In this document: positions 12,309 through 13,613 of the stretch, piece by piece
Position numbering within the stretch: position 1 is the stretch's first letter
Layout: every line of letters begins with the position of its first letter
IMG/VR virus record: IMGVR_UViG_2721755651_000007
Source of the DNA: a virus
Lineage: Duplodnaviria > Heunggongvirae > Uroviricota > Caudoviricetes
Reading direction: 5' to 3' (one strand)
DNA: 64,000 nucleotides
Notes under the pieces: generated by a model
What the model was told of the DNA's origin: nothing
Database searches by the model: none
The model's input: only the letters and a program-made list of their open reading frames with translations
Position numbers and translations under genes: made by a program

Positions 12309-12600
12309 CCAACCTCATCTATTTGATTAACTGTATGCCATCGTAGTGATGGCGTAACAGCTGCCTGCTTAAAATGTTTTGATAAAAAAACATTGACCTT
12401 AAATGTTCGTTTTTCTAAACTTCATTCATTCCCTCACCCCGCCCCACAGAATGCAGGGCAATACTTCGAGTTACCAGGCAGTGGTCAGGGGTTAAGTAGC
12501 CAGCCCGAGGCGTAAGAACATGACGGCAGGGTTCAACTTTAATAACTATGCAGCAGGTTTTTGTTCCGCTACCCCGGCGTTAAGGGGAAATGAGGTCAAC

Positions 12601-12753
12601 ATGGATACGCTCAATCTTGGCAACAACGAATCTCTGGTATGTGGCGTGTTCCCCAACCAGGACGGTACGTTCACCGCGATGACGTATACCAAAAGCAAAA
12701 CGTTTAAAACTGAAGCTGGCGCGCGTCGCTGGTTAGCCAGAAACACTGACTGA
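12601..12753 (+). CDS. small hypothetical protein, first gene of left operon
   Basis: internal Met with GAGG SD chosen; upstream part of ORF 12520..12753 contains a conserved noncoding motif. Confidence 0.3.
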   Translation: MDTLNLGNNESLVCGVFPNQDGTFTAMTYTKSKTFKTEAGARRWLARNTD

Positions 12754-12764
12754 TGAGGTTGACG

Positions 12765-13403
12765 ATGGAATTTAAAGATTTACCTCCTTCAATCCAGGAG
12801 ATTGCAGCACACACACTTCGTCATCGTCTGAACGAACTTGAATTGGAATCGGTAACGAAAAAAGACACTGATAATATGGCTCGTAATGTGCGCGATGCGT
12901 TTACCGGATTGTATTTCTGTGCGTCTATAAATAAACACGACTCAGAGAGTGTGGCAAATAAAATTGCAGAAACGACAGCGCAAAACATCAATACGAAACC
13001 AACGGAAGAAGAAATTGATCAGTTTGCTCATGATGCTGGTTTAAAAAACAAGAAAGAAAAATCGCCATATGCGGGGAACATGTTTGTTTATGACAATCTC
13101 ATCAGAATTCGTGGCGAAATTCCGGCGGAATACCTGGCAAGAGTCCATCAGGCATTGCTTAAAAATTTGGAAACAGAATTATTTGATGGCAACACTAACG
13201 GTTTCTTCATGGTATCAGGCCTTGAGAAAGACTGGGATGCAGAAAAACGCTGGAATGTTGCTACATGGTTATTCAGTAACAGAGCCGCTGCACTGGAAGC
13301 TTCGGCATGTATTTGCGGCCTGTTCTTAACAGACCACAAATATAATCTGGATGTGTACAGTTATATTTACGCTGAACACGGTCCACTCTGGATTGACTGG
13401 TAA
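12765..13403 (+). CDS. hypothetical MEFKDLP-family protein (variable cargo)
   Basis: N-terminal 50 aa shared with 59953..60360, C-terminus unrelated. Confidence 0.45.
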   Translation: MEFKDLPPSIQEIAAHTLRHRLNELELESVTKKDTDNMARNVRDAFTGLYFCASINKHDSESVANKIAETTAQNINTKPTEEEIDQFAHDAGLKNKKEKSPYAGNMFVYDNLIRIRGEIPAEYLARVHQALLKNLETELFDGNTNGFFMVSGLEKDWDAEKRWNVATWLFSNRAAALEASACICGLFLTDHKYNLDVYSYIYAEHGPLWIDW

Positions 13404-13613
13404 TTATAAGGAAACACCAGCAGGGCCGCGGCGACCAACAGAACGATTAAAATCAATAATGCCATTATAAAGGACATTATTTAATTTATCGTCGAATGCT
13501 GATTCTGTGAGCCTCAACTCTGAATGAGTTTTTAATAACCCTGATTGCCTGAGTTGATTTACCAGGCATTCAATCTGTTTTTCAATAAGCGGATTTCTTT
13601 TTTTGTTTGGCAT
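13404..13613 (-). CDS. small hypothetical protein, antisense to left operon
   Basis: strong SD GGAGGATAAA before ATG; non-homologous gene at same position in prophage B (60338..60571). Confidence 0.4.
   Translation of the reverse strand: MPNKKRNPLIEKQIECLVNQLRQSGLLKTHSELRLTESAFDDKLNNVLYNGIIDFNRSVGRRGPAGVSL

Follow-up and report, generated by a model that had tools for sequence, protein, structure and literature searches.

Prophages are known to carry variable cargo close to the immunity region, as well as convergent gene pairs of which one gene serves the lysogen and the other the lytic cycle. In the Qin prophage of Escherichia coli K-12, the genes ydfA-ydfB-ydfC-dicF-dicB-ydfD are arranged behind the promoter dicBp, which is repressed by DicA (PMC10448788); the DicA-repressed dicBF transcript begins upstream of ydfA, and its products DicF and DicB are toxic and kept under layered control (PMC5069750, PMC10448788). 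In phage lambda, the leftward gene N and the rightward gene sieB are convergent, their stop codons abutting at positions 35037/35036 inside a repressor-controlled operon, and rexAB occupies the interval from cI to PL and is transcribed together with cI. SieB is a membrane-associated protein, and in P22 exclusion is accompanied by an escape function that the phage itself encodes (sieB/esc). Prophages of Staphylococcus aureus provide the precedent of Tha/Ith, in which a defence gene is overlapped by a small antisense gene for its inhibitor (PMC11087260). For BstA, encoded directly 3' of cI, cognate self-immunity is conferred via a DNA element (PMC8585504), and the hot spots of P2 and P4 carry recognisable defence systems (PMC9122126).

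Here we compare with these systems a convergent gene pair, designated X and Y, from prophage A of the window, the latter being the whole 64,000-nucleotide stretch of IMG/VR record IMGVR_UViG_2721755651_000007; the counterparts in prophage B of the same window are referred to as X' and Y'. Qin/Sp11-like lambdoid prophages have, at the head of their dicBF-type early-left operon, a hot spot of cassette exchange, of which the pair represents one allele. Searches of the literature retrieved no description of this slot, of the leader shared by its reverse genes, of the MEFKDLP module with which its forward proteins begin or of the family formed by Y and the C-terminal domain of X. Searches with the accession numbers and locus tags of X and Y likewise found nothing, including any report on transcription, translation or phenotype.

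Genomic context of the X/Y region

A match of 100% identity to the 1.8 kb spanning X and Y is found in many chromosomes of E. coli O157:H7 and O121. In strain Sakai the region belongs to prophage Sp11, and both genes are annotated in RefSeq (Table 1). Some version of the region is present in 4616 of 5426 complete E. coli genomes (~85%).

Table 1. Features of the X/Y region of prophage A and of its counterpart in prophage B (positions in the window)
Feature	Position	Strand	Basis or remarks
Repressor, 212-aa ORF with HTH and S24 peptidase	11670-12308	+	Pfam Peptidase_S24 8e-13, HTH_3 2e-4
Operator-like 16-mer GTTTTGATAAAAAAAC	12376-12391		Repeat of 16-mers of the cro/repressor region; abuts the -35 of the promoter at 12393
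Early-left (dicBp-like) promoter-like sequence TTGACC-17-TAAACT	12393-12421	+	Promoter scan
ydfA (DUF1391), conserved first gene of the operon	12601-12753	+	Pfam DUF1391 1e-29, RefSeq CDS, K-12 ydfA
X (ECs_2211), 212 aa, pI 5.2 (acidic)	12765-13403	+	N-terminal module ~1-55, polar linker 56-99, C-domain 100-212
Y (ECs_2212), 69 aa, pI 9.7 (basic), soluble	13404-13613	-	C-terminal motif GRRGPAG conserved
Reverse-gene expression element	13614-13736	-	Promoter itself putative
SD GGAGG	13619-13623	-	Part of the element
Anti-SD CTCCAT	13644-13649	-	Part of the element
Hairpin 2	13651-13671	-	Folds, RNAalifold
Hairpin 1	13679-13700	-	Folds, RNAalifold
-10-like TAAACT	13708-13713	-	Positional conservation
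-35-like TTTTCA	13731-13736	-	Sequence
dicF leader and DicF sRNA, right-hand slot boundary	13644-14003	+	Alignment of A, B and K-12
DicF sRNA	13952-14003	+	Rfam, 75 bits
dicB	14178-14366	+	Pfam DicB 3e-36, RefSeq
DUF1482 ydfD-like gene	14363-14551	+	Pfam DUF1482 3e-15, RefSeq
X', 135 aa	59953-60360	+	Same N-terminal module as X, C-terminus unrelated
Y', 77 aa, basic	60338-60571	-	Unrelated to Y; behind the B-type form of the shared 5' leader

The immunity region of prophage A comprises a YdaT-like gene and a P22-Cro-like gene, both on the minus strand, followed by the repressor. The repressor CDS given by RefSeq and in the Sakai annotation corresponds only to the C-terminal 112 aa (11970-12308); since the HTH is N-terminal in the 212-aa ORF, the annotated product would be devoid of a DNA-binding domain. 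Three 16-mers of the GTTT(T/A)A..A.CAAAAC type, two in the cro/repressor intergenic region (11608-11623 and 11654-11669) and one at the -35 of the early-left promoter, are candidate operators of the Sp11 repressor in what would be OR-like and PL-like regions; their recurrence at the latter position fits repressor control of that promoter. The first gene behind it is ydfA. The Pfam DUF1391 match covers residues 29-75 of a long ORF starting at 12520, and it is likely that 12601 is the true start and the ATG at 12520 an upstream extension. Sakai ECs_2210 is the 77-aa ORF beginning at 12520, whereas Pfam, K-12 ydfA and PGAP are in favour of a 50-aa product from 12601, preceded by a GAGG ribosome-binding site of its own. 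X begins 11 nt 3' of ydfA, downstream of the promoter that carries the operator-like site.

From ~13650 in prophage A and 60575 in prophage B onwards, the two prophages and K-12 Qin align nearly base for base; upstream of these positions no such alignment is obtained. The original prediction that the cargo adjoins a conserved block is thereby borne out, and the block can be identified as the dicF leader, DicF, dicB and the DUF1482 gene, which in prophage A is followed by a RecE pseudogene. X and Y therefore replace ydfB and ydfC of K-12 Qin in the early-left operon. The remainder of the layout is shared with Qin: divergent cro-like and repressor genes, a promoter under repressor control, ydfA as the first gene, the leader, DicF, dicB and the DUF1482 gene. 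The differences are that X (forward) and Y (reverse) occupy the place of ydfB and ydfC, that K-12 has neither a reverse gene nor a reverse-strand ribosome-binding site, and that the Sp11 repressor, unlike DicA, possesses an S24 peptidase domain. In the comparison with K-12, X and Y resemble neither YdfB nor YdfC. Prophage B keeps ydfC.

The ~300-nt untranslated leader 5' of DicF is almost invariant in prophage A (13644-13951), prophage B (60575-60905) and K-12 Qin, and no Rfam family covers it. Its role could be in processing or antitermination or as the site of an antisense promoter. The core of the leader is also kept in Salmonella prophages that are free of DicF (L013, 6090-6390; L008, 5860-6130). 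The DicF variant of prophage B (60906-60955) has an altered 3' stem-loop and is missed by a default scan because its score of 43.5 bits is below the Rfam gathering score of 48. Directly 3' of DicF, over the 5' region of dicB, a sub-threshold STnc100-like match was found at 14015-14155 (34.5 bits; gathering score 47); full STnc100 and the anti-sRNA AgvB are located elsewhere in the window (48402-48671).

X and Y match no known protein family

X and X' share their N-termini, as had been proposed from the sequence: BLASTP aligned residues 1-50 with 27/50 identities (54%, E 1e-17) and nothing credible thereafter. Residues 1-55 of X are predicted to form two helices. An exhaustive HMMER search found these ~55 residues on ~45 protein clusters (at the 50% identity level) with differing C-termini, and the module occurs in five PHROGs families. 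Two giant repetitive proteins that matched the module or the linker appear to be compositional matches and were set aside. Within the X family itself (153 relatives with ≥65% identity, from Escherichia and Salmonella), three alleles of the N-terminal module re-assort with one C-domain. The first 153 nt of X matched 844 records; this segment recombines freely and is consequently found in many more genomes than Y and the C-domain of X. Stx2a phages, P13374 among them, also encode the module in their exo-xis region. In P13374, from the O104:H4 outbreak strain (L009, 3501-4000), ORF16 is the MEFKDLP-type protein and is followed by a partial copy of hairpins 1 and 2 (see below), with neither a ribosome-binding site nor a reverse gene.

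When distant homologues were added to the alignment, the C-domain of X was modelled with a pLDDT of 78 as a beta-beta-alpha-beta-beta-alpha-beta two-layer sandwich, that is, as what appears to be a generic alpha/beta sandwich specific to this cassette. Residues retained in the distant homologues include P, Y, an F-D-G..N-G loop, W, S and E, among others; as neither Cys nor His is among the conserved residues, there is no candidate Cys/His catalytic dyad. Kyte-Doolittle analysis revealed no membrane segment in X, and the highest 19-residue means in Y and Y' were 0.22 and 0.59, respectively, so that these too are devoid of a membrane segment. X and X' are acidic (pI 5.2) and Y and Y' basic (pI 9.5-9.7), Y being basic at both termini.

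The convergent small gene predicted to be preceded by a Shine-Dalgarno sequence is indeed present: Y has a GGAGG ribosome-binding site 5 nt from its ATG at 13613. The TAA codons of X (13401-13403) and Y (13404-13406, minus strand) stand back to back, the junction reading TAATTA. An intrinsic terminator between the two genes is ruled out by the zero intergenic space.

The proteins are small, belong to no named family and have left no trace in the literature, which raises the question of whether one or both ORFs might be spurious. We consider this extremely unlikely. Where dS is unsaturated, dN/dS is 0.15-0.38 for X and 0.12-0.29 for Y, both reading frames have been retained across genera, with 31-54% identity, a strong ribosome-binding site precedes Y, and both proteins fall into PHROG families. 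For Y, 36 relatives were found. By their substitution patterns, X and Y are real genes under purifying selection.

As had been anticipated, these proteins match no known family. Searches with X, Y, X', Y', orf99 and ydfC against Pfam, NCBIfam, PHROGs and PADLOC returned only PHROGs of unknown function; X, Y, X' and Y' gave nothing at E≤1 against PADLOC 2.0, and profiles of X and Y nothing below E 0.08 against PDB sequences. The profile and structure-prediction searches proposed earlier for X and Y, fold searches included, thus yielded nothing specific. No tblastn match to Y was obtained in 50,697 deposited phage genomes.

A two-sided cassette-exchange site

From IMG/VR, 80 loci containing ydfA were fetched and the stretch between ydfA and the leader was extracted, 60 of them being usable. 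These fall into 16 cassette classes of 387-1821 nt. Most classes consist of a forward gene starting with MEFKDLP and a convergent reverse gene, the 3' ends of which usually overlap. The reverse genes are mutually unrelated and encode proteins of 57, 64, 69, 73, 91, 92, 100, 148 and 185 aa. Among the alternative cargo, the 148-aa protein (L054 and L082, minus strand) has predicted membrane segments, the 185-aa protein (L024, minus strand) combines a coiled coil with a zinc ribbon, and a 106-aa product (L042, minus strand) is a small membrane protein; none of the three belongs to a recognised family. Nine alternative reverse genes matched no known family, with only chance-level matches in PADLOC. 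The slot is bordered by conserved flanks, on the left ydfA together with the ~50 codons that open the forward gene and, on the right, a minus-strand leader inside the dicF leader.

The anatomy is that of a two-sided cassette site inside the early-left operon, in which X is placed under the repressor-controlled promoter and Y, encoded on the other strand, follows a leader common to the reverse genes. The view that the interval holds variable cargo ahead of a conserved block stands for the slot, which is hypervariable, and fails for the first ORF of the interval, ydfA, which is conserved. The slot had furthermore been likened to the place between repressor and conserved block where lambdoid phages carry rex and sieB. 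Whereas rexAB lies between cI and PL, X and Y are 3' of the early-left promoter and of ydfA; the likeness to rex is thus lost, X being inside the repressor-controlled early operon, and that to the lambda sieB site holds, since N/sieB are likewise convergent with abutting stop codons (13403/13404 for X/Y) inside such an operon. BstA/aba and the P2/P4 hot spots are likewise prophage loci with variable cargo, situated close to the immunity region or at set positions (PMC8585504, PMC9122126). In contrast to the latter (PMC9122126), no cargo of the slot matches PADLOC.

The same 5' leader precedes eight unrelated reverse genes, and homology ends exactly at the ATG. On the minus strand the order of its elements is hairpin 1, hairpin 2, anti-SD and SD. 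Hairpin 2 exists as two alleles related by compensatory changes, and pairing of the anti-SD with the SD was predicted by RNAalifold in 10/10 leaders, with one compensatory pair. Single-sequence folds back hairpins 1 and 2 (z -2.7 to -3.3), a third hairpin being less consistent. In 21 of the 23 distinct contexts, the end of the -10-like hexamer is 7-8 nt 5' of hairpin 1, and the Salmonella versions have an extended TG. We infer that this is an antisense promoter of the reverse gene. In K-12, which has no reverse gene, the leader is devoid of the SD; the promoter-like sequence is present there too and may thus be conserved for the sake of the plus-strand leader RNA.

The last point bears on an explanation in which regulation is the chief purpose of the site: convergent transcription from a promoter within the dicF leader would curb leaky early-left transcription and shield the host from DicF and DicB, or Y would be a nucleic-acid-binding regulator of the leader. 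The layered control to which these two toxic products are subject would suit such a role, as would the retention of the promoter-like element and hairpins in K-12, where there is no cargo, and the basic termini of Y. However, the reverse ORFs are under purifying selection as proteins, the SD is found only where an ORF follows, and a single regulatory role would hardly account for ten or more unrelated reverse proteins. We therefore regard a mainly regulatory explanation as decidedly unlikely.

Linkage of the C-domain of X with Y

Among the 5426 complete E. coli genomes, the C-domain of X is present in 600 and Y in 597; for prophage B, the C-terminal part of X' is found in 656 and Y' in 650. 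Distant homologues of the C-domain were identified in Salmonella prophages with an int-C-cox immunity region, at 33-38% identity in BLASTP alignments over the C-domain and 31-36% in the longer local alignments used for dN/dS. Their N-termini are unrelated to that of X, and one contains an inserted XRE-type HTH. Every one of them is accompanied by a convergent, 3'-overlapping homologue of Y with 46-54% identity to Y and with the ...SGLLK...GRRGPAG..L motifs retained. Between the E. coli and the P2-like Salmonella versions of X/Y, dS is saturated. Judged from these alignments, the C-domain of X and Y stay paired across deep divergence. A third pair, the forward C-terminus of class L040 with a 64-aa reverse gene, is common to E. 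coli and Salmonella. The Salmonella locus concerned (L003, 4001-5600) has two tandem cassettes, X-like/Y followed by an N-terminal-module protein with the 64-aa reverse gene, which is of the same family as that of L040; each cassette has its own copy of the hairpin element.

Pairing does not extend to the site as a whole. One forward protein of 124 aa occurs with no reverse gene, with the 73-aa or with the 148-aa one, and another of 133 aa with either the 92-aa or the 57-aa one. Since forward C-termini and reverse genes re-assort in this manner in other classes, cognate pairing is not a general rule of the slot.

X and Y could accordingly be independent accessory genes at one hot spot, X acting in early-lytic takeover or counter-defence and Y being an unrelated lysogen gene, the two travelling together on account of their abutting stop codons. 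The re-assortment just described speaks for this, as do locus L058, where X is present without Y, and proteins with the N-terminal module that have no reverse partner (ORF16 of P13374 and class L021). Linkage could simply reflect abutting genes that leave no room for recombination. Against independence, however, the X/Y pair persists in Salmonella despite rampant exchange nearby, and the linkage counts of two different pairs are near perfect, with the third pair shared as well. On balance, we give independence a weight close to that of the reading preferred below.

Possible functions of X and Y

The reading we prefer, to which we would give a probability of roughly one in three, is that Y is a lysogen-state effector and X its early-lytic cognate partner. 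In the lysogen, the antisense promoter-like element would direct transcription of Y, and X would be made only after relief of repression, early in the lytic cycle. With no terminator between the convergent genes, expression of one would probably preclude that of the other, and the overlapping transcripts may be substrates of RNase III. As a small, basic and soluble protein, Y might serve in phage exclusion or in another lysogen function, and the acidic C-domain of X may bind and neutralise it as the prophage goes lytic. Mutually exclusive expression also counts against such a partnership, for the two proteins would seldom meet.

The same logic underlies P22 SieB/Esc and Tha/Ith (PMC11087260), and there is a resemblance to the self-immunity of BstA/aba (PMC8585504). 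With Tha/Ith the locus has in common a convergent prophage pair joined at its 3' ends, the overlap being 0 nt in prophage A, 23 nt in prophage B and 11-52 nt in Salmonella. In contrast to Tha, a large HEPN RNase with Ith as its small partner, here it is the small protein that is on the presumed lysogen side; neither a HEPN domain nor any other known domain was found in Pfam, the C-domain of X being the generic sandwich described above. The similarity to lambda N/sieB is likewise one of arrangement: SieB has 184 aa, whereas Y is a soluble basic protein of 69 aa that gives no BLASTP alignment with SieB and no Pfam match, and X is not N-like.

Charge and size would also be in keeping with a toxin-antitoxin or abortive-infection module in which the basic Y is the toxin and the acidic X the antitoxin, and one homologue of the C-domain carries an XRE-type HTH, as do many antitoxins. 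However, X and Y are convergent rather than arranged as a co-directional autoregulated operon of type II, and neither matches a toxin or antitoxin family in Pfam, NCBIfam or PADLOC. Moreover, because X is in a repressed operon, a toxic Y would be unopposed in the lysogen. We consider this alternative very unlikely.

Returning to Y as effector and X as its partner, the original prediction had named the genes of this interval candidates for superinfection exclusion or defence. Position and organisation like those of sieB keep the candidacy alive, and the more specific affinities are gone: Y is not SieB-like, the rex position is excluded, and no family of defence, toxin or exclusion proteins is matched. 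That X and Y act in defence or exclusion is hence put forward here as a hypothesis derived from position and organisation.

Implications for lambdoid prophages

A fixed site at which small genes are swapped behind a shared expression element would offer prophages a route for trading lysogen-state functions. It may be, doubtful as this is, that the whole slot works as a two-sided site in which the antisense promoter and leader drive the reverse gene in the lysogen and the forward flank drives a matching partner early in the lytic cycle; the reverse genes, at least ten in number, would then be a reservoir of new small effectors of exclusion or defence, and at least some forward C-domains (those of X, X' and L040) self-immunity factors.

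The operon that the slot heads is itself of consequence for the host, since DicF and DicB affect cell division, metabolism and phage entry. They have also been linked to virulence of EHEC. For the annotation of O157 genomes, the present analysis corrects the readings of ydfA, of the repressor and of the 'hypothetical' pair ECs_2211/ECs_2212. The reverse genes and several forward C-domains together make up a list of candidates for phage exclusion with self-immunity, and the significance would be high if the reverse genes turned out to encode exclusion factors, and their early-lytic partners to be cognate inhibitors of these.
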